From: Gemmataceae bacterium
GTDB taxonomy: Bacteria; Planctomycetota; Planctomycetia; Gemmatales; Gemmataceae
Reading direction: 5' to 3'
DNA: 64,000 bases
NCBI GenBank assembly: GCA_035653735.1
Contig: DASRBG010000052.1
Location: forward strand, 4,990 to 68,989
Notes under the pieces: model-generated
What the model was told of the DNA's origin: nothing
Database searches by the model: none
The model's input: the letters and a program-made list of their open reading frames with translations, nothing else
Program-made: the position numbers and the translations under genes
Shown: positions 5,011 to 58,315 of the stretch, one piece after another
Layout: every line of letters begins with the position of its first letter
Position numbering within the stretch: position 1 is the first letter of the stretch

Positions 5011-5039
5011 GGCAGCTCCCTTCCGGACAGAAGAAGACC

Positions 5040-5170
5040 AACCACAGAGTCACAGAGAACGCAGAGAAAGACACAGAAATCGAACAAAAACAAGGCTCTC
5101 AGATTCTGACTAATTCCATTTTGATTTTCCTCTGTGTTTTTTCTCTGTGTTCTCTGTGACCCTGTGGTTA
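5040..5170. repeat. palindromic element family B, copy 1 (MITE-like, long A/T-rich loop)
   Basis: Left arm is AACCACAGAGTCACAGAGAACGCAGAGAAAGACACAGAAA (5040..5079). A near-complementary right arm ends in CTCTGTGACCCTGTGGTTA (to 5170). The loop is about 48 nt and A/T-rich. The terminal TTA of the right arm is the stop codon (reverse strand) of 5168..6787. Confidence 0.85.
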
Positions 5171-6787
5171 GTGCTTTTTATCCTCCAGTGGTGCGTATCT
5201 GGCGATGATGGCCTTTGCCGACCGTAGGCCATCGACGGCGGCACTGACAATGCCGCCCGCGTAGCCGGCGCCTTCGCCAACCGGATACAGTCCTTCCAAT
5301 CCCGGCGTCTCGCGCGTGATCTCATCGCGGAGGATGCGCACCGGGGCGCTACCGCGTGCCTCCGGGCCAACCAGCGTCGAGTCCGGGACGAACCGGCCAC
5401 GCCACTGATGGTCCATGATCGGCAGGCCGTGCCGCAGCGCCTCGACGATCAACGGCGGCACCAGTTCGGCGATGCGTCCCGGTACGGCGCCGCGCGGATA
5501 GCTATTGTCCGGAACATCGCTTGCATCGCGGCTATCCAGAAAATCGCGGACGCGCTGGATCGGGCAGAGATAATCGCGCCGGCCCATCTCGAAAGCGCGT
5601 TGTTCATAAATCTGTTGCAAACGCATGCCGGCGAGGACATCCGTGCCGCCGAAATGCTCGGGCGGCACCGTCACCACCAGGCCGCTGTTCGCAAACGGCG
5701 AATCGTGTTTCGACAGACTCATGCCGTTGGTGCAGAAGGAGCCCGGCTCTGACACACTCGGCATAATGTAACCGCCGGCGCACATGCAGAACGTGAAGAG
5801 ATCGTGCGGGCCGTTGGCGATCAACGTATAGTTTGCCGCCCCCAAGCGCTGCTCCAGCGGTGAGGGGCCATATTGGACGCGATTGACGATCTCTTGCGGA
5901 TGCTCGATCCGCACGCCCATCTGAAACGGCTTCTGCACCATCGGCACGCCGCGCTCCAGCAACATGCGATACGTATCGCGAGCGCTGTGGCCAATGGCCA
6001 GAACGGCCACCGTCGCTGGAATGTAACCCGACGAGGTAGCTAATCCGCGCAATTGGCCGCCGGAGAGATCGAGATCCTCAACGCGGCAGGAGAAGCGCAC
6101 TTCGCCGCCGAGACTTTCGATGCGACGGCGAAGTGCCTTGACGACGGCCGGCAAGCGATTGCTGCCCAGGTGCGGCCGGGCGTCGTAGAGGATCGAAGGT
6201 TTGCCCTTGCACTCGGCGAACAGTTGCAGCACCCGGCGAACGTCGGGGCCGGAATTGCGATAGGTCAATTTGCCGTCGCTGAACGTGCCGGCCCCGCCCT
6301 CGCCGAACAGGTAATTGCTTTCCGGATCGAGCGGGCCGCCGGCATCGAAAGTGCGAACATCGTGGATGCGCTGGCGCACGGGCCGGCCGCGCTCCAACAT
6401 GAGCGGGCGATAGCCCTGTTCGGCGAGAAAGTAAGCCGCCGCCAATCCGCCCGGACCCGAACCGACCACAACGGGCCGATTCGTCAACGGATACGTGCCG
6501 GGTTTGGGCGGGACGAACGGCTCCTCCGTATAGAGATCGATCCTTACCGGCGGGCGCACAGCCCTCCGGGCGTGGGCGATGATCCGTTGCTCATCACCGG
6601 GAAGGGTGACCTCGGCATTGTAGACGAAGCGAAGCGCGTCTTTGCTGCGTGCGTCGAGCGACTTGCGAAGAATGCGCCAATTCAAGGGCGCGGTCGGGCT
6701 TAGGCCAAGAATGCGGGCCAGATGCTCTGGCAGCATCGCTTCCGGCTCGTCGATGCCGAGACGCAGGTTGGCGATGCGGATGGACAT
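5168..6787 (-). CDS. FAD/NAD(P)-binding oxidoreductase (COG2509-like)
   Basis: 539-aa ORF with the Rossmann dinucleotide motif VVVGSGPGGLAAAYFLAEQG. The N-terminus MSIRIANLRLGIDEPE is typical of this uncharacterised FAD-dependent dehydrogenase family (recognised from memory). Confidence 0.85.
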   Translation of the reverse strand: MSIRIANLRLGIDEPEAMLPEHLARILGLSPTAPLNWRILRKSLDARSKDALRFVYNAEVTLPGDEQRIIAHARRAVRPPVRIDLYTEEPFVPPKPGTYPLTNRPVVVGSGPGGLAAAYFLAEQGYRPLMLERGRPVRQRIHDVRTFDAGGPLDPESNYLFGEGGAGTFSDGKLTYRNSGPDVRRVLQLFAECKGKPSILYDARPHLGSNRLPAVVKALRRRIESLGGEVRFSCRVEDLDLSGGQLRGLATSSGYIPATVAVLAIGHSARDTYRMLLERGVPMVQKPFQMGVRIEHPQEIVNRVQYGPSPLEQRLGAANYTLIANGPHDLFTFCMCAGGYIMPSVSEPGSFCTNGMSLSKHDSPFANSGLVVTVPPEHFGGTDVLAGMRLQQIYEQRAFEMGRRDYLCPIQRVRDFLDSRDASDVPDNSYPRGAVPGRIAELVPPLIVEALRHGLPIMDHQWRGRFVPDSTLVGPEARGSAPVRILRDEITRETPGLEGLYPVGEGAGYAGGIVSAAVDGLRSAKAIIARYAPLEDKKH

Positions 6788-6791
6788 GCAC

Positions 6792-6869
<78 letters not shown>

Positions 6870-7322
6870 TTACTTGCTGCGGTTGACTAAATCGGAAATC
6901 CTCACCTTTTCCAGAGCTTTGCGCATCTGCTCGGCGGTTTGGCCGCAGACTTGCTCCAGCTTGGGATGAAGGCTGTTCCAGGTCTGGTTGAATTTCTTGA
7001 TCTGCGAGGGCGAGAATTCATCATCCTTATCGGTCGGGCGATCCGGCGCATAACCACGGAGAGTGCCATCCACTGCTTCGATGATGTCGAGCATGGTGAT
7101 GTCCGACGGGGTACGAGCCAACCGGTAGCCGCCGTGAGGCCCCTTGACCGAAAGCAAAATGCGGTGGGTGACGAGCGGCTTGAGTACCTTGAGCAAGAAA
7201 CGCATGGGGATACCGCGTTCATTGGCGATGTCGTGCGACGCCACCGGAACGTTTGTCGCTTTCTGTTGGGCCATGTGGACGACAGCATGCAAGGCGTAAC
7301 TGGATGCGCGTGTCAGTTTCAT
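6870..7322 (-). CDS. Rrf2 family transcriptional regulator
   Basis: MKLTRASSYALHAVVHMAQQ... is the canonical Rrf2 winged-helix N-terminus. The ORF extends upstream to 7406, but the family-typical start is the ATG at 7322. There is only one Cys, so it is probably not an Fe-S cluster type. Confidence 0.8.
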   Translation of the reverse strand: MKLTRASSYALHAVVHMAQQKATNVPVASHDIANERGIPMRFLLKVLKPLVTHRILLSVKGPHGGYRLARTPSDITMLDIIEAVDGTLRGYAPDRPTDKDDEFSPSQIKKFNQTWNSLHPKLEQVCGQTAEQMRKALEKVRISDLVNRSK

Positions 7323-20908: not shown

Positions 20909-20921
20909 AGGATAGAAGAGC

Positions 20922-21070
20922 TAACCACAGAGTCACAGAGAGCACAGAGAAAAACACAGAAAAATCAAAAGAACAATAAAGCAGTTCCCCTTTTAACCTT
21001 TTCCCTCTATTCTTCTCTTCTTTGTTTCTTTTCTGTGTTTCTCTCTGTGTTCTCTGTGACTCTGTGGTTA
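20922..21070. repeat. palindromic element family B, copy 2
   Basis: Left arm is TAACCACAGAGTCACAGAGAGCACAGAGAAAAACACAGAAAA (20922..20963). Right arm is 21029..21070, with two mismatches. The loop is about 65 nt and A/T-rich. It lies between the start of 20078..20908 and the stop of 21083..22690. Confidence 0.85.
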
Positions 21071-21082
21071 GTTTGTTTCTCC

Positions 21083-22690
21083 TCAATTGACCTTGATGGT
21101 GACGCGACTTTCGTTGCCGCCCCGCAAGGTATCGTAGGTGATCTCGACGAGTCCGTTGGCCTTTTCCATCTCACGGTAGAACTCCGCTGGGGTGGAGATC
21201 TCCTGGCCATTGACTTTTTTGATGATCAGATCCGGTCGGAGTCGAGCCTTCTCGGCGGCGCTTCCGGGCAGGACTTCACGGATGACGACGCCTTCGGGGA
21301 TGAATTGCTCCAAGGGCAACACAACGCTGGACCAATCGACGCGCAGTCCGCCGCGCGCCCTCGGCCGATTCGAGGCGATAAGGGGACCGAGGGAAGGAGA
21401 AGGGACGGAGGGAAACTTGGTCAACTTCACCTGGTGGATTTGCCCCTGTCCCGGCCGGACAGGGCTTTGGGATACTTCGACGCGGATGGTGGTGCCAGCC
21501 TGCTGGAGCCCGACGGCGAGAAACAGATCGTCATTGTTGTGGATCGGCGTACCGTTGATGGAAAGAATGTAATCCCCAGGCTCACTGCGAAACCGATTTC
21601 GCATAGGGAAACCACCACGGTAAATCGGCCCGCGGATTCCTCCCTGAACAGCGGGGCCTTTGTCCACCAAGCTGCTGATGCGGACGTAGCCCTCTAGGAT
21701 TTGGTCCGCTCTCTCCAAGTAAACGCCCAGGAAACCGTATTCGACCTCCTCGCCGCGGAGCAGCACGTTGATGATGCGTCGCATGCCGTCGTCGAGCGGC
21801 ACGCCGAAGCCGCCGGGCGTTTCGCCGCCGGCAATGCCGGCCAATGACGAGGTCAAACCAACCAGTTCGCCTTCCAGATTGAGCAAGGCGCCGCCGCTGC
21901 AGCCGAGGTTCATGCGCGTGTCGGTCTGGATCAAGGTATTGAAGCAATAGAGCGGCAGCTTCGCGTTGCGTTCGGTGGTCGAAACGTCGTCGGTCAGCAC
22001 CCCCGTGGCCCGACGGCGCAGATTGCTGACGATGCCCCACGATGAGCTGGGACTGCCGTCGCGAAAGCCGGCCGCGAACGGATTTGACAACGACAGGATG
22101 AAATCACCCTTGCGCAGTTTACTGCCGTCACCGAGTTTGAGCGTCTTGAGATTCGGCTTTCGCTCGATCAAGCGCAGCACGGCGAGGTCACTACGGGGGT
22201 CGGAAGCGTGGATGTCGGCCCAGCTGCCGATTCCGCCCGGCAGACGGACGTAAATCTTCGTGGCGTTGCGAATGACGTGAGCCAGCGTCAGGATCAACCC
22301 TTTTTCGCTGTCGAGAACAATGCCGCTGCCGTAAGCCTCCGGCACGTTATCGGGGTTGCTGAGATCGAGCCGCTGAATCGCCTGGCTTTCGGGACTGTCC
22401 TTGTCCACGGATCGGAGAGCGCTTCGCGCATCGAATCGGCCGAGCTGACCGGGCTGGCGGGGCAGGATCGTATCATACGCGCGGTATTTGTCGCTGCGTG
22501 AGACGAGGATGCAGGCGATGCTCGGCTCGGCCCGCTCGATCGCTTGATGAACCGCCTCTTGCAACGCGAGCACATCGGCAAAGCGATTGCGTTCATCGCC
22601 CAGGGCCGAGGCTGACCCCAGCAAAAGAAGGGTCAGCGGAGTTAGCAAAGCATTACGGCGCATGAGTTGGTTCCTCGTAGCGTCCACCAC
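21083..22690 (-). CDS. HtrA/DegP-family serine protease with two PDZ domains
   Basis: Trypsin-fold triad context: LTLAHVI (His), DLAVLRL (Asp), NLGCSGGALLN (Ser). Two PDZ-like segments follow: GDYILSINGTPI and GVVIREVLPGSAAEKARLRPDLIIKKVNGQEI. Confidence 0.9.
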   Translation of the reverse strand: MVDATRNQLMRRNALLTPLTLLLLGSASALGDERNRFADVLALQEAVHQAIERAEPSIACILVSRSDKYRAYDTILPRQPGQLGRFDARSALRSVDKDSPESQAIQRLDLSNPDNVPEAYGSGIVLDSEKGLILTLAHVIRNATKIYVRLPGGIGSWADIHASDPRSDLAVLRLIERKPNLKTLKLGDGSKLRKGDFILSLSNPFAAGFRDGSPSSSWGIVSNLRRRATGVLTDDVSTTERNAKLPLYCFNTLIQTDTRMNLGCSGGALLNLEGELVGLTSSLAGIAGGETPGGFGVPLDDGMRRIINVLLRGEEVEYGFLGVYLERADQILEGYVRISSLVDKGPAVQGGIRGPIYRGGFPMRNRFRSEPGDYILSINGTPIHNNDDLFLAVGLQQAGTTIRVEVSQSPVRPGQGQIHQVKLTKFPSVPSPSLGPLIASNRPRARGGLRVDWSSVVLPLEQFIPEGVVIREVLPGSAAEKARLRPDLIIKKVNGQEISTPAEFYREMEKANGLVEITYDTLRGGNESRVTIKVN

Positions 22691-25132: not shown

Positions 25133-25191
25133 GATTCGCGACGCTTCGCAGAAGCGTGCCAGGGCAACGCTTCTGCGAAGCATCGCGAATC
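25133..25191. repeat. palindromic element family G, copy 1
   Basis: Arms GATTCGCGACGCTTCGCAGAAGCGT (25133..25157) and 25167..25191 pair over 25 bp with one mismatch around a 9-nt loop. The element lies 31 nt after the stop of 23669..25102. Confidence 0.85.
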
Positions 25192-25825: not shown

Positions 25826-26110
25826 ATGCCGCACACGCGTAGCGCCAAGAAAAACCTGCGCAAGAGCGAGAAACGACGACTGCACAACCGGTCGGTCAAG
25901 AAGGACATCAAAACGCAGATCAAGAGTTTCCTGGAGGCGCTGAACGGTCCGGCCGATCAGCTCCAGAAGGAATACAATCTGGCCGCGAAGAAGCTGGACA
26001 AGGCAGCGGCCAAACGAATTGTCCATCCCAACTTGGCTGCACGCAAGAAATCGCAACTGGCTCGCCAGCTCCAGAAAAAGACCGCCGCATCAGCAAGCAA
26101 ACCGGCGTAA
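25826..26110 (+). CDS. rpsT: 30S ribosomal protein S20
   Basis: 94 aa. MPHTRSAKKNLRKSEKRRLHNRSVKKDIKTQIK is the canonical S20 N-terminus. The protein is basic throughout. Confidence 0.93.
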   Translation: MPHTRSAKKNLRKSEKRRLHNRSVKKDIKTQIKSFLEALNGPADQLQKEYNLAAKKLDKAAAKRIVHPNLAARKKSQLARQLQKKTAASASKPA

Positions 26111-26190
26111 TTACCACAGCAAGGGCAAGGGCGAGCGGGGTCGCGTTAGCGCCCCCGCTCGCCCTTGCCCTTGCTGTGGTAATTACGCCG
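26103..26190. repeat. 38-bp perfect palindrome (hybrid containing the family A core)
   Basis: 26103..26140 pairs perfectly with 26153..26190 around a 12-nt loop. It contains GGCGAGCGGGGTCGCGTTAGCGCC, identical to the left arm of copy A1. The stop codons of rpsT (26108..26110) and of the MMPL gene (26183..26185, reverse strand) lie in opposite arms. Confidence 0.9.
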
Positions 26191-28708
26191 CGAGATTGCG
26201 GCGCGTCGGCAACCGGCGCGATCCCTGTTTTTTCTTCGGGGCCATCTCTGCACGCCACATCCACAGCGCGAAGGGCGGCACCAAAAACGGCCGAACCACG
26301 AACGTATCGATCAACACGCCAAATGCCAAGGCGAAGCCGATCTGCACCAGCGTGCTCAATCCACCCAGCATCAAGGTAGCAAAGGTGCCGGCCATGATGA
26401 GACCGCACGAGGTGATCGTGCCGCCGGTGCGCGACAGAGCGCGGCGAATACCCTCGACAGGTCCATGGCGCAGGCGCTCCTCCAGGGCGCGTGTGATGAG
26501 CAGGATGTTATAATCCTCACCCACCGCGACGAGGATGGTGAACAAGAAGAAGGGCACGCGCCAATCGACCAGGCCCAGAGGCCGGCCATTCCACCAGTGT
26601 GCCAGCAGCGTCGTCGCCCCCAGGCTGGCGTAGTAACTGAACAATACCGATGCCAGAAGATAGAGGGCAAACCACGGCCGGCGCACCAGAGCAAGCAGGA
26701 TCAGGAAGATGCCGGCCAAGACCAAGGTGTTGATGCGGAGACGATCGCTCTCCGTGACCTGAGCCAAGTCGCGGGCATTCACGGTGATGCCGTGACATTC
26801 GGCCCGTACTTGCTCCGCTCCCGGATACTTTGGCAACTCCTCGCGCAGCCATAACTGAATCAATTCGAGCGTTCGGACGCTTTCCACATCGAAGGGATCG
26901 GAACGCGGCACCACATCCAGGCGCGTGACGAAGCGCGTCGGCCCTTCGGTTTTCGTGGCGGGCAAGCGGGCGACATAAAAATCACCGGCGGCGCGGTTGA
27001 TCTGATCGGTCAAGCCCTGGACGACGCTGCGCCACATGCTTTTGAGCAGAACATTCTCGTTCCCAGGCTCCGCCTGGGAAGCCACGGCACGTGAGGCTCC
27101 GCCTCGCGTCTTCTGCCCGATGGCTGTAAGCCGATCGCTAAACTCCGATACGGGACTGCCCAAGGGCTGAGTCAGGCTGCGCACCTCCGCGACGTTGTCG
27201 AGGTAGCAGAAACCCTGGCTCAAATGGGAGATGATGGCCCGACCTTGCGGCCCTTCCCAGTCGGTGTTCGATTCAAGCAACACGGTAATGGGGCCGACTT
27301 CGCCGGCGGTGAAGTGGCGCTGGATCGCTGCCAGACCGCGAATACTGTCGCTACTGGGTGACAACTCGCTAGTGGCCCGATAGTTTGGCCGCACCCCGAA
27401 CCCGATAAGGGCCAGCGGCATCAACGTGAGTAGGGCGGCCACACCAATGAGCAGAGGATGGGCAACGACATAACGGCTGATCCGTCCCCAGACTCCCTCA
27501 AGCCGCCATTCCCTGCCGGTGTTCAGTGAACTGCGGAGCGCGGGCGTCTCGCCCGCATAGTGTGAGTGAGAAAGTGGAGCGCGATCGGCGGTTGGCGGAC
27601 GGCGCGGCCAAAAGGCGATGGGACCGAGGATGCGGAGCAGCGCCGGGGTCAAAGTCAGTGAGGCGGCGAGAGCAACCGCGAGGCTGATAGCGATGGCAGG
27701 CCCGCCGCAGCGCACCTTGGCGAACTCAGCCAGTCCCATCAGTCCCAGACCGCAGATGACGGTTCCGGCACTGGCGGCCAAGGCGCCGCCGACACCGCCG
27801 ACGCTGCGTGCCAACGCCGCCGGCCAGTCTCGGCCGCGCGTCAGCTCCTCGCGATAACGGCTGATGAGGAACAAGCAATAATCGGTGCCGGCTCCGTAGA
27901 GCATGACCACGGCGAAAACCTGGCTGATGTTGACCATACAGAAACCGGGGATCAGCGTGCAGAGGGCCAACATCTTGAGGGCGACCCAAACGGAGACGGC
28001 GATGGTACACAGCGGAATGAGGGCCATCACCGGAGCGCGGTGGACCAAAAGGAGAATGACAATGACGAGAATAACGGTCGCCAATGTGGTGCTTTCCAGG
28101 CTGTTGGCACTGGCGGCGATGAGGTCGCGGCCGATGCCTGCTGGCCCGGTCAGATGAACACGAAGTTCTGAGTTCTGAGTTCTGGGTTCTGAGTTTTGGT
28201 TGGACTTGCTCGGAAGTCGGAACTCAGAACTCAGAACTCGACTAACGGCGTCCACTGTCGTTCGCGTCTGGACGGCCATGTAAGGCGTATTGAGCGAAAC
28301 CTGAATCAAGGTACATCGGCCGTCGCCGCTGACCAGTCGTTTGCCGAGGACCGGATCGCGATAGGTGCAAATGCGGGAGATTTGCAGGCTCGGATCTTCT
28401 TGGCGTAGTCGTTGCAAATCGGCGGCGAGGCCATCGACCCTGGCGAAGTCGGCCGGCGTCAAGGACGCATCGGCCCGCTCGACGGTCACGATGAGACGGC
28501 TGGCAAATACGTCTTGCGGAAAGGCCTGTTCGAGCAGTTGATGGCCCTTGACGCTGTCGCAGCGGGCGGGCAGGAAGCGAATGTCGTCATCGGCGGCGCG
28601 CTCGTCCCACTTGGGCGCCACGATGCTAACGACCCCGGCGACGATCACCCAGGCAAGACAGACCAACCACGGATGCGTCGCCGTTGCTCGTCCCAGGTAC
28701 TTAAACAT
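26183..28708 (-). CDS. MMPL family (RND superfamily) transporter
   Basis: 841-aa ORF. N-terminus MFKYLGRATATHPWLVCLAWVIVAGVV. It has two blocks of about six hydrophobic helices separated by large loops, with GTDYCLFLISRYREEL and GEDYNILLITRALEE segments typical of MMPL proteins. Confidence 0.9.
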   Translation of the reverse strand: MFKYLGRATATHPWLVCLAWVIVAGVVSIVAPKWDERAADDDIRFLPARCDSVKGHQLLEQAFPQDVFASRLIVTVERADASLTPADFARVDGLAADLQRLRQEDPSLQISRICTYRDPVLGKRLVSGDGRCTLIQVSLNTPYMAVQTRTTVDAVSRVLSSEFRLPSKSNQNSEPRTQNSELRVHLTGPAGIGRDLIAASANSLESTTLATVILVIVILLLVHRAPVMALIPLCTIAVSVWVALKMLALCTLIPGFCMVNISQVFAVVMLYGAGTDYCLFLISRYREELTRGRDWPAALARSVGGVGGALAASAGTVICGLGLMGLAEFAKVRCGGPAIAISLAVALAASLTLTPALLRILGPIAFWPRRPPTADRAPLSHSHYAGETPALRSSLNTGREWRLEGVWGRISRYVVAHPLLIGVAALLTLMPLALIGFGVRPNYRATSELSPSSDSIRGLAAIQRHFTAGEVGPITVLLESNTDWEGPQGRAIISHLSQGFCYLDNVAEVRSLTQPLGSPVSEFSDRLTAIGQKTRGGASRAVASQAEPGNENVLLKSMWRSVVQGLTDQINRAAGDFYVARLPATKTEGPTRFVTRLDVVPRSDPFDVESVRTLELIQLWLREELPKYPGAEQVRAECHGITVNARDLAQVTESDRLRINTLVLAGIFLILLALVRRPWFALYLLASVLFSYYASLGATTLLAHWWNGRPLGLVDWRVPFFLFTILVAVGEDYNILLITRALEERLRHGPVEGIRRALSRTGGTITSCGLIMAGTFATLMLGGLSTLVQIGFALAFGVLIDTFVVRPFLVPPFALWMWRAEMAPKKKQGSRRLPTRRNLAA
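27534..27556. repeat. solo unit of family I inside the MMPL CDS
   Basis: CGGAGCGCGGGCGTCTCGCCCGC is the exact reverse complement of 48166..48188 (an arm of the intergenic hairpin I1). It contains the mini-hairpin GCGGGCG-TCT-CGCCCGC and encodes ...AGETPALRS... in the inter-domain linker. Confidence 0.8.
28161..28240. repeat. palindromic element family D (GTTCTGA heptamer arrays) inside the MMPL CDS
   Basis: Five tandem GTTCTGA-like heptamers lie at 28165..28199. An 18-bp perfect stem joins 28164..28181 and 28221..28238. It is translated in frame as ...SEFRLPSKSNQNSEPRTQNSELR... in the first large loop of the transporter. Confidence 0.85.
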
Positions 28709-28865: not shown

Positions 28866-28952
28866 TATCCGAGCCGCGCACGCAGCGCAGCGGAGTAAGC
28901 GGTTTCTTGGGGCGACCGCTTACTCCGCTGCGCTGCGTGCGCGGCTCGGATA
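28866..28952. repeat. palindromic element family E, copy 1
   Basis: 37-bp perfect stem (28866..28902 / 28916..28952) with core CGAGCCGCGCACGCAGCGCAGCGGAGTAAGCGG and a 13-nt loop. It lies between the MMPL start and the tRNA, and is not downstream of any gene. Confidence 0.9.
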
Positions 28953-28999: not shown

Positions 29000-29072
29000 G
29001 CCCCCGTAGCATAATGGACAATGCACTCGCCTTCTAAGCGAGCTTATGCAGGTTCGAGTCCTGCCGGGGGTA
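29000..29072 (+). tRNA. tRNA-Arg (anticodon TCT)
   Basis: Manual cloverleaf:
- Acceptor stem GCCCCCG/CGGGGGT (G1-U72 wobble).
- D arm GCAT-AATGGACA-ATGC.
- Anticodon arm CTCGC-CTTCTAA-GCGAG (anticodon TCT).
- Variable loop CTTAT.
- T arm GCAGG-TTCGAGT-CCTGC.
- Discriminator A. CCA is not encoded. Confidence 0.92.
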
Positions 29073-30475: not shown

Positions 30476-30494
30476 GCGTCTGCTTGCTTGGATC

Positions 30495-30569
30495 CGAGCC
30501 GCGCACGGAGCGTAGCGGAGTAAGCGGAAGCAGTGTCCGCTTACTCCGCTACGCTCCGTGCGCGGCTCG
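30495..30569. repeat. palindromic element family E, copy 2
   Basis: 34-bp perfect stem (30495..30528 / 30536..30569) with a 7-nt loop, between the convergent stops at 30475 and 30604. It differs from E1 at two arm positions, and both differences are mirrored in the other arm. Confidence 0.9.
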
Positions 30570-30603
30570 TACGAAAATGCCACTTCGTGGTGTGGAAAAT
30601 CGA

Positions 30604-35939: not shown

Positions 35940-36021
35940 CTAATTTATTGGAGGCTTATCGCTTTTATCGACCGGCGGATCGAAATTGTGAGCGAAAAAT
36001 CCGGCACGGTGCTAGCGCTCC

Positions 36022-36096
36022 GAGCCGCGCACGCAGCGCAGCGGAGTAAGCGGCACAGGTAGCCCCGCTTACTCCGCATCGCTGCGTGCGCGGCTC
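36022..36096. repeat. palindromic element family E, copy 3
   Basis: 32-bp stem (36022..36053 / 36065..36096) with two adjacent uncompensated mismatches and an 11-nt loop. The right arm overlaps the stop codon (36095..36097) of the Omp85-like gene. Confidence 0.85.
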
Positions 36097-39000
36097 AGAA
36101 AGGATGCTCGATGCCGGCCCAGATTTGCATGGGTGCGGCGCTGTTGACGGTTTTGGCCGCGTCGAGACGGAAGATGGTGCGTTCCACGAAGGTGAACCAA
36201 GCCACGTCCAGGCGCAGACCCGCGCCGACGGCCTCCGTGATGCCGCCGACCGATTGGCCGCTCAGATACACGTCGCCCACATCGCAAAAGGTCGCCGCAT
36301 AAATGCCACGCACATTCAAGGCGTGGTCGAAGCAGCTCCAGTTCAGGTTGCGAATCACGGGGAAACGCCATTCTAAGCTGCCGACCCAGAGCGCGCTTCC
36401 CTGCCGTTGCGCCAGACTGAAGCCGCGGAACAGCTCGCTGCCGCCCAGGGCGAAATACTGAACATAGTTGGGCAAACCAAATGCCCCATAGGCGCGGAAC
36501 GCCAAAACGGTATCCGACAACCAGCCAAGACCGTCGGGCATGGCTTGCACGTAGGTCGCCTGTCCCAGCAATTGATGAGAGCCGCTGAGTCCGAATGTCT
36601 GATTTGGAGGCGTATTCGGCGTCTGCTCCCCCGGCAAAACGAGGCCGGCGGCATAACTGATGTCGGCCGAAAAACCGCCTTCGGGGTTCCAGTAGGGCGT
36701 CAGGTAATTGATGTGGTAGTGGGCGCCGCCGATACCTTGATGGCTAAAGCGCTCCGCCCCCGGCACGCTTTCGATCGCCGTCGGCAGCAGGTTGTCCTGG
36801 ATGGTGACAAAGCTCTCCACGTACTGAAACGGCGGCAGATACAGGCTATCGCCGTAATCGATGACGTAGCGCCCATAGGCGACCCAGCGGTTGGCCGGAG
36901 TCTCTCCGGCGTACGTTCCCGCGATGCGGCGCTCGTAGACGAAGCCGGCCTCCGTGTGCGGCCAGGGGAAATGATCGAAGGTAGCATCGACGCCTTCGAC
37001 GAAATCGCGGTAGTCGGTACGGTAGGCGGAATAAACGCCGCCCTCGAAAGCGGCCGTGCGGTAAGCGCCTGCCCGGACACCAAAGCGGGTCGAGCGCGTG
37101 AACCACGGATTGTCGTAGGTCGGCGCGAAGATCCACGGTCCGAGGATGAAATTCCAGCGGTCGTAAGCGTTGGTCAGGTCCGTCTCATCGAGAAACGTGT
37201 ACAGCGGCGTGGCGCGGAGGCGGAAGCGCGGTTTCCAGTAATTGTTCACCGGATTGCGATCGACCAGGACTTCATCGGGATCGACCGCGATTTGCGTCGG
37301 CCAGCATGGCAGCTCCACTTCGATTTTAACGCGATTTTTTTCCAGCGTCTCGACGCGGCCGGGTGGATCAGTGGTCTCGACCAGGCCGGCCTCCGGTGCG
37401 ACTGGGATGCGCACTTGAAAGCCCTCGCCACCGTCGAGGCAGAAGCCAACGACGGTGGGATCGTTGTAGTCTGCCTTTTGCTTCACGATGACCGTGACCT
37501 TGCAAGGAGTCTTGGGCCGGAACCAGCTGCGAATGGCCGCGCTGTAGCAGTGATAGGTCAATGGGAGCCGGCGCGAGCGACCGCTCGGCAGCGCCTGGAT
37601 GCTGACCTTCTCGATGCACCAGTCCGTCAGGCCCGCGCCATAAACCCAGTGATCGAAAAAGGTCTTCCACGATTTGTGCGTATATTCTTCGAGATCCCGT
37701 TGGAAATCGGCGACGCGCAGGATGCCGAAGGCGTGCCGTCGATAGACGAGGTACATGAAATCGAAGAATGCTTTCTCGCCCAACTCGTGCTCGATCATGC
37801 CGACGATTTTGCTGCCGCGTTCGTAGCACATGCTGTACAGATCGACGATATGTCCAAATTTTGGAATGTCTTGCACGGTCGGCGCCGCCTCCGCGCGAGC
37901 AAGGGTGCCGTATAAGTTGAAATAGCGGTAATCGTTGCGATGTACGTTGGGCAGCCATTTGAGACCTGTCGGGTAGCTTACAAGTGGGTCGTTGGCCCCG
38001 TACTTGGTTTTCATGAGGCGGTAGGCGAAATAGGTGGCCAGCCCCTCGTCCATCCAGGTTTCGCTGTAGCCGTGCGTGCCGACGACGTTGTACCACCATT
38101 GATGGCACGTGGCCTGAGAGACCAGGTAATCGACGAACGCCTTGGCCAGGTGCGGCATGTCGAAGATGCGCGAGTCGATCATGATCAGGCCGGCGCACTC
38201 GTTACTGTTCCAGCCGAAATGCGATTCGACGATGGTAAATTGCTTATACGGATAAGGACCGAACCACTGGCTATAAGCGGTCAGGGCGGCGCGTGCGCTT
38301 TCCACCATGAAACGAGCGTAATGTTCGTTCTTCGGCGCGGCCAGGCAGCGGATTTTGATGTGCCCGCACTGTCCCGTGAACTCTTGAAAGCGATCACTGC
38401 ACACGATGGCGAAGTCGCGAGCGAAACAGGGCGCGAACTCTAACTGCCGCCGTCCGTCAATAAGCGGATCGTCCCGCGCCACCTCGGCAGTGCAGGCGAC
38501 GTGTTGCCCGCGCGGCAAGGTAAGGCGCACCGTGAACAAACCCGCCTCGTTGAAGAATGGCTGATGCCAGCAGACATAGGGCGTCGGCTGCCAGCCCTTG
38601 TCGTCGTAAAATGCCAGTACCGGGAGCCAGTTTGTCAGGAAGGTGATCCCCTGCCAATGGCCCCAACGTCCACATTTCTCCGGTAGTTTCAAAACGAATT
38701 CCAGATCGAGCGTGATCGTCTCGCCTTGACGAACCGGCCGCGGCAGGGGAACGACCAGAGCGGAATCGTTTTTTTCGTCATAGTGGAAAGGCAAGCCCTC
38801 CTCGGCACCCCCAGCCGGCTGACGCCGGCCGTTCGTCGGAGCATCCAATAGCCGAGGCGGAGGCAGCTGCGAATCGATGGATTGATACGCCACTTTTCGC
38901 GGTCGTCCTAACTCTTCCGCATCCTCGACCCGCTCCAGCCTCACCAGACGCACCGTGCGGACATCGAGAGCGTGTCCCTCGAAATCGAGCGATTCGCTGG

Positions 39001-39298
39001 GCATCATGCGCAAGATCTCGAAAATCTTGGCCGTCATGCCCACGTCCTTATCCGGCAGCCGGTAGTGGCTGTGCGCGTTGAAAATCAGCTCGGCTGCCGG
39101 CCGGGCGCAGTTATTCGTCCAGACGATGCGCTGGCGGACCACGGCGGTATGTTCGTCGGTGTCGAGTTGGATGTCCAGGTAATAGCGCGGCAGATTGGGA
39201 GGCACGGCAGCCCATGCCGAGTTGGCGAACAGGGCAAGGGCCGACAGGCTGAGCACAAGGCACAGGCAGGTGCGCAGGTAGAACGTGGATCCAAACAT
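36095..39298 (-). CDS. outer-membrane protein: M1-peptidase-like domain (degenerate zinc site) fused to an Omp85/BamA-TamA-type beta-barrel
   Basis: The signal peptide starts at MFGSTFYLRTCLCLVLSLSALALFANSAWA (ATG 39298; the ORF opens at 39391). The M1 layout is present with QATCH-X18-E in place of HExxH-X18-E (nt 38045..38116). The C-terminal third has Omp85 hallmarks (LGGSELFRGFS ... GSLEWRFPV ... FCDVGDVY ... GAGLRLD ... IWAGIEHPF, with a terminal Phe). Confidence 0.85.
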   Translation of the reverse strand: MFGSTFYLRTCLCLVLSLSALALFANSAWAAVPPNLPRYYLDIQLDTDEHTAVVRQRIVWTNNCARPAAELIFNAHSHYRLPDKDVGMTAKIFEILRMMPSESLDFEGHALDVRTVRLVRLERVEDAEELGRPRKVAYQSIDSQLPPPRLLDAPTNGRRQPAGGAEEGLPFHYDEKNDSALVVPLPRPVRQGETITLDLEFVLKLPEKCGRWGHWQGITFLTNWLPVLAFYDDKGWQPTPYVCWHQPFFNEAGLFTVRLTLPRGQHVACTAEVARDDPLIDGRRQLEFAPCFARDFAIVCSDRFQEFTGQCGHIKIRCLAAPKNEHYARFMVESARAALTAYSQWFGPYPYKQFTIVESHFGWNSNECAGLIMIDSRIFDMPHLAKAFVDYLVSQATCHQWWYNVVGTHGYSETWMDEGLATYFAYRLMKTKYGANDPLVSYPTGLKWLPNVHRNDYRYFNLYGTLARAEAAPTVQDIPKFGHIVDLYSMCYERGSKIVGMIEHELGEKAFFDFMYLVYRRHAFGILRVADFQRDLEEYTHKSWKTFFDHWVYGAGLTDWCIEKVSIQALPSGRSRRLPLTYHCYSAAIRSWFRPKTPCKVTVIVKQKADYNDPTVVGFCLDGGEGFQVRIPVAPEAGLVETTDPPGRVETLEKNRVKIEVELPCWPTQIAVDPDEVLVDRNPVNNYWKPRFRLRATPLYTFLDETDLTNAYDRWNFILGPWIFAPTYDNPWFTRSTRFGVRAGAYRTAAFEGGVYSAYRTDYRDFVEGVDATFDHFPWPHTEAGFVYERRIAGTYAGETPANRWVAYGRYVIDYGDSLYLPPFQYVESFVTIQDNLLPTAIESVPGAERFSHQGIGGAHYHINYLTPYWNPEGGFSADISYAAGLVLPGEQTPNTPPNQTFGLSGSHQLLGQATYVQAMPDGLGWLSDTVLAFRAYGAFGLPNYVQYFALGGSELFRGFSLAQRQGSALWVGSLEWRFPVIRNLNWSCFDHALNVRGIYAATFCDVGDVYLSGQSVGGITEAVGAGLRLDVAWFTFVERTIFRLDAAKTVNSAAPMQIWAGIEHPF

Positions 39299-39398: not shown

Positions 39399-39493
39399 AG
39401 AAAGTGAGGAGTGAGGAGTGAGGAATGAGGGGAAGAAGAGATGCCGGTATTTGTTTTTTCTCCTCACTCCTCACTCCTTACTCCTCACTTTCT
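39399..39493. repeat. palindromic element family F (GTGAGGA heptamer arrays)
   Basis: Stem 39399..39438 / 39454..39493 is 40 positions with one mismatch and a few G-T pairs. The left arm has three GTGAGGA units. It lies in the divergent region between 36095..39298 and 39608..42853. Confidence 0.85.
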
Positions 39494-42936: not shown

Positions 42937-44130
42937 GTGTTTGGCTCGATCCTGCAACGGATGATCCTATGGGAACTCACCAAAGTGTTCCTCATGTCAC
43001 TGGTAGGGATCACCGGCATCCTGCTCATGGCCGGCATCATCGCCGAGGCGTCGCAGCAAGGTCTCGGCCCGGCGCAGATTCTGGCCGCCATCCCCCTTCT
43101 TGTGCCCAGCACGTTGCCTTACACCATCCCAGCTACTACGCTGTTCGCTACCTGCGTCGTCTACGGACGATTGGCCGCCGACAATGAAATCCTTGCGATC
43201 AAATCCGCCGGCATCAACGCCATCCGCGTGGTCCGTCCCGGCATTTTTCTCGGCCTGGCCATGAGCACCGCCACCATGGGTTTGTACTACCGCATCATCC
43301 CCTACACGCACCACCTGCTCCGCGCCATGGTCTTCAATGACGCTCAGGAACTCTTGTATTCCCTGCTGAAAAAACACCATGAAATCAAACAGAACTCTTT
43401 TCCCTACCAGATCTTCGTTAAGGGAGTAAGAGACAGGAAGTTGATCGAACCGATCTTCAAGCGCAAGGACGCGCATGGGGCGATTGACTGGGTGGCTCAT
43501 GCCCGCGAGGCCGAGCTACAAGTGAGGCCCTCCCAGGGCCAGGTGGATGTGCTGGTGAAGCATTGCGTTGTATGGGGCGAAAACGACTCCAGCGGCATCT
43601 TGGAGGACAAACCGCTTACCGTCGAGCTGCCCAAAGATTTTGGCAAATTGAACGAACGCCGGCCGCGCGATCTGACCTGGCAAGAGATTCTCGATCGCCG
43701 CGTCGAGTTAGAAAAGAAGATCGAGGAAATACAAGCAAAGACTTCCGTGGATACGGCACGCTTGCTGCTTATCCAAGCGCCGGAGAACCTTCCTCTCTTT
43801 TTGAAATCCTGCAAGGATCAGATGGACAAAGCTCAACAAGAAATCGTCGCACTGAATGTCGAATTGCAGATGCGCCCGGCGCTTAGCTTGGGCTGTCTGT
43901 TCTTCATTCTGGTTGGCTGTCCGGTCGGCATTTGGTTTAGCCGCAGCGATTACCTCAGCGCCTTCATCACGTGTTTCTTGCCGATCGTGTTCATTTACTA
44001 TCCGTTGATGCTTTGCGGCACCGGCATGGCCAAGGAAGGACGCTACAACATGATCCCGCTCGTCTGGGGCGCGGACGCGGTCGTCGGCGTGATGGGCGTG
44101 GTGTTGTTCTGGCGATTACTGAGGAATTAA
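42937..44130 (+). CDS. LptF/LptG family permease (YjgP/YjgQ)
   Basis: ILQRMILWELTKVFLMSLVGITGILLMAGIIAE... is the typical LptF/G N-terminus. Three N-terminal and three C-terminal helices flank a periplasmic domain. The GTG at 42937 lies 5 nt after GGAGG; the ORF opens at 42913. Confidence 0.85.
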   Translation: MFGSILQRMILWELTKVFLMSLVGITGILLMAGIIAEASQQGLGPAQILAAIPLLVPSTLPYTIPATTLFATCVVYGRLAADNEILAIKSAGINAIRVVRPGIFLGLAMSTATMGLYYRIIPYTHHLLRAMVFNDAQELLYSLLKKHHEIKQNSFPYQIFVKGVRDRKLIEPIFKRKDAHGAIDWVAHAREAELQVRPSQGQVDVLVKHCVVWGENDSSGILEDKPLTVELPKDFGKLNERRPRDLTWQEILDRRVELEKKIEEIQAKTSVDTARLLLIQAPENLPLFLKSCKDQMDKAQQEIVALNVELQMRPALSLGCLFFILVGCPVGIWFSRSDYLSAFITCFLPIVFIYYPLMLCGTGMAKEGRYNMIPLVWGADAVVGVMGVVLFWRLLRN

Positions 44131-44132
44131 CC

Positions 44133-44215
44133 ACGAAAAAGGACAAAAGGGACTAAAAGGACCAAAAAGAATGGTCTTCTTTTTGGTCCTTTTAGTCCCT
44201 TTTGTCCTTTTTCGT
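44133..44215. repeat. 39-bp perfect palindrome (family H)
   Basis: 44133..44171 (ACGAAAAAGGACAAAAGGGACTAAAAGGACCAAAAAGAA) pairs perfectly with 44177..44215 around a 5-nt loop. It lies between the convergent stops of lptF/G (44130) and the sigma factor gene (44224). Confidence 0.9.
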
Positions 44216-44223
44216 CGTTTCTT

Positions 44224-45828
44224 CTATTCCGTCTCGGCGAATTCGGCGAGGCGTTGACTGCGGAGCGGCTGACGCAGCTTGAGCAAACCGCGCGCTTCGA
44301 TCTGGCGGATGCGTTCGCGCGTGATTCCGTATGCTCGTGCCACTTCCTCTAGCGTTCGCGGCTGGCCGTCGCGCAAACCGAAGCGCAACTCGATCACTTC
44401 GCGTTCCCGCGGCGTCAGCGAACGCAATACCTCGGCGATACGCTCGCGCAGCAAATGCTGATCGACCTGCTGGCCGGGATTGGCAGCGTCGGGGTCATCG
44501 AGGAAATCTTCCAAAGCGCGTTCGCCATCGCCGCCGAGCGGTTCGTGCAAGCTAACCGGATGCCGCGATACGACGCGGAGCGATTGCGTCTCTTCGGGCG
44601 TCACGCCGAGGACGGCGGCGATCTCTTCCACGGTCGGCTCGCGGCCCTGCTGGATGGATAGTTCGCCGCGCACCCGCTCGACCGCCGCCAGCGTGCCGAC
44701 TTGATGGCAAGGCACACGGATCGTGCGAGCGTGGTCGGCCAGGGCGCGAGTGATGCCCTGACGAATCCACCAGGTCGCGTAGGTGCCGAACTTGTATCCC
44801 AGTCGATGCTCGTACTTATCCACCGCCCGCATGAGGCCGCGATTGCCTTCCTGAATGAGATCCGAGAACGGCAGGCCGCGGCTGCGATAGCGTTTGGCGA
44901 TCGACACGACCAGACGCAAGTTACCTTCAGCCAATTCGCGTCGCGCTTTTTGATATTCAATCCGGCGATGTTCCAGCACCCGCACCAGCTTGGCGAGATC
45001 CTCGGAGGAGGAACGCACTTCGTGAGTGAGGTCGCGCAGCTGCTTGGCCGCCTTGGTACGGCGTTCGCGGTCGGCGGACGAGCGATGGCCGGCGTCCTTC
45101 TCCCGTTCCAGCTGAGCCATCTGCCGGGAAAAAGCTCGCAGCTCATCGACCCAGCGATCAAGGAGATCGATGCGCGGCGACAATTCCTCCGCCAGACGCA
45201 CGGACTTGCGGAGTCGCCGCCAGAGATCGCGTCGCGTTCGCTGGTGGCTGACCGAAGAGCCCGCCCGTAGATGGCGGAAGTCGGTGTCGGCAGCGTCGAT
45301 GAGTTTTCGCAGCGTTCGCAGGTTGTGGGGCATGCGCTGCAAGATGCGTTCACGGCTTAGCCCCAGGGTCGTCACCACGTCGATGGTGGGATCGAGGGCC
45401 AGCTGGCCGGCGCGAACGCGCTCGAAGGTGTCCACGATGCAGCCCAAGGTGCGCCAGTTCATCATGGCAGCGTGGCGATAACGGCGGCGTTTTAGCTCCA
45501 GCCGTTCGGCCAAGGCCAATTCCTGATCGCGACTCAAGAGTGGGATTGCGCCCATCTGCCGGAGATAGAGTCCGAGGGCGTCATCCGGCGCGTGCGCATC
45601 TTCTTCCTCTAGTTCGTTAGCGGCCGCCGTTTCTTCAGCGGCCGCCTCCTCTAACTCCTCGGCATCTTCCGCGGGGAAGGAATCGTCCGGAAGTTCGCTC
45701 CACGGCGTCTCGCGCCGCGCGGGGATCTCCTCCGCCTCGGCTTCGTGCACAAGGGGTTCGGGTACGGCCAACGCCGGCTCGGAAGCCGCGTTTTTACCTG
45801 TCCGCTTGGTTGTCCGTCTCATGACCAT
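44224..45828 (-). CDS. rpoD: primary-type sigma-70 factor (RpoD/SigA-like)
   Basis: 534 aa with an acidic N-terminal region. [21 protein letters not shown] (region 1.2), [60 protein letters not shown] (region 2), [28 protein letters not shown] (region 4.2). Confidence 0.9.
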
Positions 45829-58257: not shown

Positions 58258-58315
58258 TTAGCGACGCTTCGTAGAAGCGTCGAGCGGCGACGACGCTTCT
58301 ACGAAGCGTCGCTAA
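58258..58315. repeat. palindromic element family G, copy 2
   Basis: 25-bp perfect stem TTAGCGACGCTTCGTAGAAGCGTCG (58258..58282) / 58291..58315 with an 8-nt loop. It lies between the stop of 58335..59927 and the start of 57199..58128. Confidence 0.9.

Follow-up and report, generated by a model that had tools for sequence, protein, structure and literature searches.

The window, by which we mean the whole 64,000-nucleotide (nt) stretch of Gemmataceae DNA analyzed here, contains long hairpins that carry the same substitutions in both arms, raising the question of how the two arms of a repeated element come to change together. A sequence-only reading had offered two answers, namely, selection on a folded nucleic acid or a mechanism that copies one arm from the other. 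Our data support the copying of arm from arm, and they do not support selection on a long folded hairpin as the main cause.

The hairpin E1 forms a perfect 38-bp stem (28866-28903 paired with 28915-28952, with an 11-nt loop), perfect as described before, although the length then given was 37 bp. It comprises two 35-nt arms that follow the family E consensus, i.e., a left REP arm on the plus strand (28868..28902), with an initial T, a CnGA foot, a CCGC/GCGG lower stem, an internal loop, and apical G-N-A motifs, and a right REP arm on the minus strand (28916..28950), separated by a 13-nt spacer (28903..28915) that is one substitution away from the commonest spacer of the family. The G-N-A motifs would act through GNA-loop chemistry and sheared G-A pairing. 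E1 is placed between a divergent minus-strand gene (start at 28708), which we take from its protein sequence to be MMPL-like, and a plus-strand tRNA-Arg(TCT) gene (29000..29072), a neighbor outside the element; we found no promoter- or terminator-like site around E1, and an Rfam search of the window returned tRNA only. The doublet E2 (30493..30571; arms 30493-30527 and 30537-30571) lies 18 nt past a stop codon and contains a perfect 34-bp stem (30495-30528 and 30536-30569), in which the two mirrored changes reported earlier (C16G and C21T, in both arms) were confirmed, but C2A is present besides in one arm only. In E3 (36019..36099; arms 36019-36053 and 36065-36099), every change is of the one-arm kind; these include the two adjacent mismatches already recognized and a third change, C3T, that had been missed. 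The latter creates a CTGA variant of the foot in the right arm and overlaps the TGA stop codon (36095-36097) of the minus-strand gene at 36095-39298, such that the right-arm foot (36095-36099) provides the stop of the neighboring gene; the apparent mismatch at the foot may therefore be a host-derived junction rather than the decay proposed for this copy. Fold z-scores were -14.7 (E1), -16.5 (E2), and -10.8 (E3). Measured between the 35-nt arm boundaries of the family itself, the loops are 13, 9, and 11 nt, respectively, so that of the earlier values (13, 7, and 11 nt) only that for E2 needed changing, and the loops of E2 and E3 are at least 4 edits from any relative. Given the stems and mirrored changes seen in the window, the earlier local description was right save for small boundary errors.

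Two further doublets belong to family G and have 23-nt arms. G1 (25135..25189, 9-nt spacer) carries a mirrored A3C and a one-arm C8T, and in G2 (58258..58315, 12-nt spacer), C15T is mirrored and occupies the N position of the GNA loop in the arm's own hairpin. Thus, the claim of a change present in both G2 arms stands, but the G1 stem, described as perfect, contains one one-arm mismatch. That the G arm is an imperfect palindrome is evident from its sequence. The window also contains long inverted repeats of 7- to 9-nt tandem units (5029-5176, 20909-21083, 6785-6876, 39399-39493, and 44124-44224), several families of which occur genome-wide, some as perfect stems with private unit patterns. One heptamer-repeat hairpin (~28165-28240) lies in frame within the MMPL-like gene, where the encoded protein stretch is unrelated to, and ~7 residues longer than, that of the orthologue in the congener G038.

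Family E is a REPIN, an identity not recognized in the earlier reading: two REP arms, inverted relative to each other, enclose a variable spacer. More specifically, its arms are paired in inverted orientation, form a long hairpin, and occur in many extragenic copies, and its spacer is more variable than its arms. In the related genome G072, four exact E arms, arranged as doublets, lie on both sides of a 180-amino-acid (aa) PF01797 gene (locus L043, the one locus with exact doublets of the 33 PF01797 loci examined). E-type arms also flank homologues at loci L040, L044, L049, and L050, with a shorter E variant beside the PF01797 gene of L040, and the homologues bearing such further arms share 64 to 76% identity. 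At L043 (1354-1400) and L049, the 3' end of the gene enters the flanking E arm, where its last residues are encoded. The L043 protein contains NHVH, WT, and YVLNEQ, with L in place of V/I. The relevant sections of Quentin et al. (2018, PMC6006769) describe class 3 TnpA-Y1 proteins of ~178 aa with NHVH, W[TA], and YVxxEQ (YV[VI]xEQ) motifs in Planctomycetes, Acidobacteria, and Proteobacteria, with CnGA-footed hairpins flanking their genes; judged by motif rather than by those authors' profile, the L043 protein matches this class. As a canonical GTAG RAYT (NF047646; groups 2/3), it scored 30.6 bits against a cut-off of 80, and there is no GTAG foot; as an IS200/IS605 transposase (NF033573), it scored 31.6 bits against a cut-off of 55. 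Both assignments were rejected.

The arms themselves point the same way. E arms begin with T-CCGA, and the variants CTGA, CAGA, and CGGA together make up the class 3 CnGA foot. The flanks of 37 of 82 loci, counted with a search pattern that favored complementary matches, share a grammar consisting of a CnGAG foot, a four-base lower stem, a two-base internal loop, a covarying two-base pair (in the states CC/GG, AC/GT, GC/GC, CT/AG, and GT/AC), and a G...A loop. From its sequence, E appears to be a version of this grammar with an enlarged apical part. The proposed fold of the single E arm draws on this comparison across genomes and on GNA-loop chemistry, and ViennaRNA did not predict it (z 0.55). 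G arms begin with TTAG and not with the CnGA foot of class 3, and no G arm was found beside a Y1 HUH gene in 144 fetched loci or beside the 33 PF01797 genes; we class G as a REPIN, and its build suggests that it, too, would be spread by a class 3 TnpA-Y1. Neither E nor G borders any of the three PF01797 genes in the present genome. A single class 3 gene is present (L003:1270-2060, on contig C225; 37% identical); the REPs on its flanks belong to family I and are arranged in tandem, four per side, rather than as doublets, with the stop codon of the gene inside a REP. A transposase gene specific to E was not detected in the assembly, which is 64% complete. Separately, clusters of composite palindromes (L001:1030-1390 and 1890-2020, on contig C28) flank an IS200-like Y1 gene that scores above the NF033573 cut-off.

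The elements are mobile. Of 121 genomes from the bacterial family, 14 contain the E-arm pattern, which occurs 421 times in G072 and is missing from both congeners. All three E sites of the window lack E in the congeners G038 and G107. More specifically, G038 carries an empty E1 site; in G107, the corresponding intergenic stretch holds a doublet of family K; the E2 site holds a K doublet in G107 and another palindrome in G038; and K-family doublets occupy all three corresponding intergenic stretches of G107. Such turnover of REPINs has been reported (10.1101/2024.10.14.618302). Among 68 E doublets, no consistent target-site duplication was detected, and 53 lack any flanking direct repeat of at least 2 nt.

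To place the window hairpins in their genomic context, we counted E arms, defined as matches within 8 mismatches of the consensus, throughout the 5.6-Mb assembly (264 contigs). There are 168, of which 148 are joined in 74 inverted pairs; setting aside 6 composite or degenerate pairs and the 20 unpaired arms left 68 simple doublets. In these doublets, 29 substitutions are mirrored, 117 are one-arm changes, and 3 are both-different; in a stricter set, only 19 of 64 doublets have identical arms. The earlier reading had named, as the outcome that would refute it, unmirrored changes being as common as mirrored ones genome-wide, and it is the one-arm changes that prevail (117 versus 29). Mirroring is nonetheless ~10-fold in excess of chance, with 27 mirrored changes observed compared to 2.8 ± 1.5 upon random re-pairing of the arms of 64 doublets, and none of 2000 permutations reached the observed value. 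Likewise, the earlier view that the loops are unrelated could not be sustained genome-wide, because 20 of 68 spacers have a neighbor within one edit (shuffled mean 1.5, maximum 2); 59 distinct spacers were counted among 64 doublets, and spacer shortness showed no significant link to mirroring within E (p 0.29). By our own gene calls, 60 of 64 doublets lie between genes, 2 inside genes, and 2 at contig edges. At position 33 (C33), the most mutated position of the stem, 14 changes affect one arm and none is mirrored, possibly because it is a hot spot of methylation or deamination. Nested composites also occur, in which E arms surround a J-family or other doublet (C107:5698, C114:7624, C12:4091, and C25:17785); with ~8 partial copies besides, they recur as a unit.

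The excess is not peculiar to E. With family labels other than E and G assigned in this analysis, mirrored changes exceeded all 2000 permutations in each of the seven short-spacer families (E, H, I, J, K, M, and G), which together comprise 480 doublets with 277 mirrored and 458 one-arm changes. The long-spacer families F and O showed no mirroring, and hairpins built of heptamer arrays showed at most ~2-fold mirroring. Within E, mirrored changes fall on few positions: sites 3, 12, 16, and 21, which were picked post hoc, hold 20 of 29 mirrored compared to 20 of 117 one-arm changes (p 1.5e-7). Site 3 corresponds to the n in the foot, and sites 12, 16, and 21 to the N in the three G-N-A motifs. 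Similarly, mirroring in the other families peaks at the loop N, where the arms disagree in 6 to 27% of doublets as against 23 to 65% if they varied independently. The three substitutions quoted from the window (C16G and C21T in E, and C15T in G) all occupy the N position of G-N-A motifs and are polymorphic family-wide, a feature that the earlier reading did not mention. In G072, which is assembled in megabase contigs, the two arms agreed at the loop N in 45 of 50 doublets of related families, and four alleles occurred there, as counted by eye on 50 of the 51 doublets shown, families mixed. The J-type pattern, sought in five other genomes, yielded only three doublets; in G090, 3 of 3 J-type doublets (C1:1519592, C7:254204, and C13:603769) have C in one arm and T in the other at the loop N, heterodimers whose asymmetry is inherited. 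We considered whether discordance arises from mixing of arms between elements and rejected this source: transitions are as frequent at discordant N sites as in the background (42:24 versus 237:94, p 0.24), and new mutation is thus enough to explain them.

Several observations favor the view that arms are copied from one another in elements already in place: (i) one H-family spacer occurs with three fully mirrored two-site haplotypes (CA/CA, GT/GT, and TT/TT); (ii) among private alleles, 18 of 134 are mirrored, compared to 2.1 expected by two hits; (iii) one E copy combines a mirrored deletion with two mirrored substitutions, and another has a mirrored dinucleotide change in the REP stem; (iv) a private perfect stem reaches 47 bp; and (v) complementarity extends into the outer flanks, scoring at least 8 in 27 of 480 doublets compared to ~2 expected, although many of these stretches are relics of other repeats and could be explained by insertion into existing hairpins. 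By our own gene calls, mirroring is no lower between divergent genes than downstream of genes (p 0.79), which points to a process at the DNA level.

The clearest individual example of post-insertion copying is the hairpin at 26103..26190, between convergent genes, one the MMPL-like gene and the other presumably rpsT from its protein sequence. Both of its arms consist of the same 11-nt-deleted K-type arm plus an H-type core, and this arm is private, occurring nowhere else in the genome. The symmetry reaches 8 nt into the ends of both genes, both stop codons included, and G107 carries an intact K doublet in its place. Compared with the G038 orthologue, the MMPL-like gene has two synonymous changes that match the inverted rpsT end, a single case that is weak alone.

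We consider that the excess of mirrored changes is probably the product of DNA-level copying between arms combined with a filter on which copies serve as donors. E would owe its spread to an enzyme of the class 3 TnpA-Y1 type (RAYT-like HUH). Once inserted, the arms mutate independently, as is shown by the one-arm changes that make up the majority. Now and then, a resident arm would be re-synthesized on its partner, a step for which the evidence is strong and whose simplest form would be template switching by the replication machinery at the long hairpin; such an event would either erase or mirror a change and could extend into the flank. Only copies with an intact REP hairpin would then act as donors, and mirrored variants at the foot n, the internal-loop N, and the GNA-loop N would multiply into common alleles, with those at essential sites staying private. 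Under such a filter, the selected structure would be the small single-stranded DNA hairpin of each arm and not pairing along the long stem. A toy Moran model (single seed, equilibrium assumed) gave 65% discordance without copying, a diversity of 0.02-0.15 under selection for perfect pairing (0.65 observed), and, when copying occurred only at duplication, mirroring of just 0.3-0.4% of changes at the essential, or other, sites (45/355, i.e., 13%, observed); high diversity, low discordance, and the 13% mirrored share were reproduced together only by resident copying at ~0.15-0.4 events per element lifetime together with the donor filter. Some findings run counter to copying. Private indels are mirrored in 1 of 23 cases compared to 19 of 130 private substitutions, mirroring is lacking in F and O and weak in heptamer arrays, and J doublets in G090 are heterodimers. 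The families, the arrays, and the heterodimers imply that the arm-symmetrizing process is not universal.

An alternative that we hold to be credible, if improbable, is that the transposase itself symmetrizes the element, with a new copy, or an in-place rewrite after a REP nick, being built from one donor arm. The relevant parts of PMC3116915 proposed an asymmetric intermediate in need of re-symmetrization, and RAYTs have been suggested to be able to modify or replace REPINs in place (10.1101/2024.10.14.618302). Such a role would fit the contrast between class 3-type doublets, in which mirroring is strong, and hairpins of heptamer arrays, in which it is weak, and a duplication model with a 5-fold mutable N site fits both the diversity and the discordance at N. 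Nevertheless, duplication-only copying falls far short of the mirrored share observed at essential sites, REP-breaking mirrored changes (the stem dinucleotide and the 11-nt deletion) are unexpected from competent donors, and the inherited C/T heterodimers of G090 count against symmetrization by the transposase. The in-place, nick-triggered form is compatible with all three of these points. A stronger version of it, which we regard as rather unlikely, is that the class 3 TnpA-Y1 actively rewrites resident doublets, with the REP nick priming fold-back synthesis on the other arm and so homogenizing the two, and with neighboring host DNA, gene ends included, occasionally overwritten by an inverted copy. 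If this were true, the enzyme would be a targeted palindrome-making editor, and its activity would account for the lasting symmetry of symmetric REPINs amid the divergence of their populations.

Copying between resident arms with a donor filter also accounts for the data better than selection on the long hairpin, folded as RNA or single-stranded DNA and serving as terminator, RNA stabilizer, or transposition substrate, in which independent compensatory mutations would be fixed. The placement of E would suit such a role, with 49 of 68 element-to-stop distances at or below 30 nt and an enrichment between convergent genes (19 of 60 versus 300 of 2309 in the background). In addition, sense-strand mismatches in the seven families favor G-U over A-C (92:60, p 0.012), which hints at some RNA-level selection, but the excess relative to singlets is not significant (60:43 versus 26:33, p 0.10). 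Against this explanation, mismatches outnumber compensations 4:1 in E, the mirrored share is equal between divergent genes, and the model with perfect pairing yields far less diversity than was observed. A conserved structured RNA was likewise rejected: nothing bar tRNA matched Rfam, no RNA data set was listed as holding the stretch, the window sites are not conserved in the congeners, and the mirrored changes bunch at few arm positions instead of being spread along the stem. Compensatory selection on the long hairpin as the main cause is largely refuted, and we judge it very unlikely. That mirroring is an artifact of assembly or error correction collapsing inverted repeats is hardly credible, even though the assembly is fragmented and public contigs break within arms, since contigs from run X1 (which may be the source sample) connect each E2 variant arm with its unique flank and show no differences, the right arm of E2 is connected in the same way in run X2, which comes from another study, G072 shows the same arm concordance, and most doublets retain mismatches.

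Parts of this picture are in print. REPINs were defined in PMC3116915, the relevant parts of which call compensatory changes common; diverse REPIN spacers are described in sections of PMC3337134 and PMC8049555, and symmetric and asymmetric REPINs in those of 10.1101/2022.05.22.493013; the loop is considered to be probably strongly affected by recombination in the part of 10.1101/119743 that concerns it; and loop positions are unequal in importance for other TnpA-REP enzymes according to the pertinent part of PMC8266576. Compared with the REPIN/RAYT system as described in the corresponding parts of Bertels and Rainey (2011, PMC3116915) and PMC3337134, E has a CnGA instead of a GTAG foot, the spacers here are short (mostly 8-14 nt), and arm copying fits better than the hairpin selection to which the pattern was ascribed there. 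E shares its foot and lower stem with the class 3 REPs shown in the pertinent parts of PMC6006769, whose supplement (file 2) lists a consensus identical to family J of this genome. E departs from those REPs in its upper pair (AC/GT) and in its apical part, which is enlarged to 13 nt; E is absent from the 16 supplement matches to the word searched, and doublet arms are not analyzed in the sections concerned. The REP dimers of Di Nocera et al. (2013, PMC3733652) resemble the elements studied here in forming homo- and heterodimers, in their variable spacers, in insertion into palindromes, and in REP-end stop codons, but they belong to GTAG and CGTC families, and the parts of that paper concerned contain no arm-by-arm count of mutations.

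The closest precedent for the mechanism is homogenization of inverted repeats by template switching, for which the relevant sections of Lavi et al. (2018, PMC5941160) and Abraham and Hazkani-Covo (2021, PMC8604942) report, as here, copying of arm onto arm, conversion of imperfect to perfect repeats, and multi-base mirrored changes; those repeats are short and single-copy, whereas ours are 23- to 35-bp arms of a mobile family subject to a donor filter. A literature search of openly accessible main texts found no paper that applies template-switch homogenization to REPIN arms and, within the same scope, no published quantification of mirrored versus one-arm changes in REPINs. As compensatory changes in REPINs and template-switch homogenization of inverted repeats are both already in print, and neither this class of element nor the mechanism of copying is new, the gain lies in the quantification and not in a new system.

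The printed accounts considered here of how REPIN arms keep matching amid the drift of their family invoke either hairpin selection or an unspecified re-symmetrizing step. In this genome, the seven short-spacer families offer several hundred doublets and marker positions with four alleles, which make the question of arm matching countable. They also urge caution, in that covariation in such hairpins is no evidence for a functional RNA. The counts favor copying within resident elements over compensatory selection.
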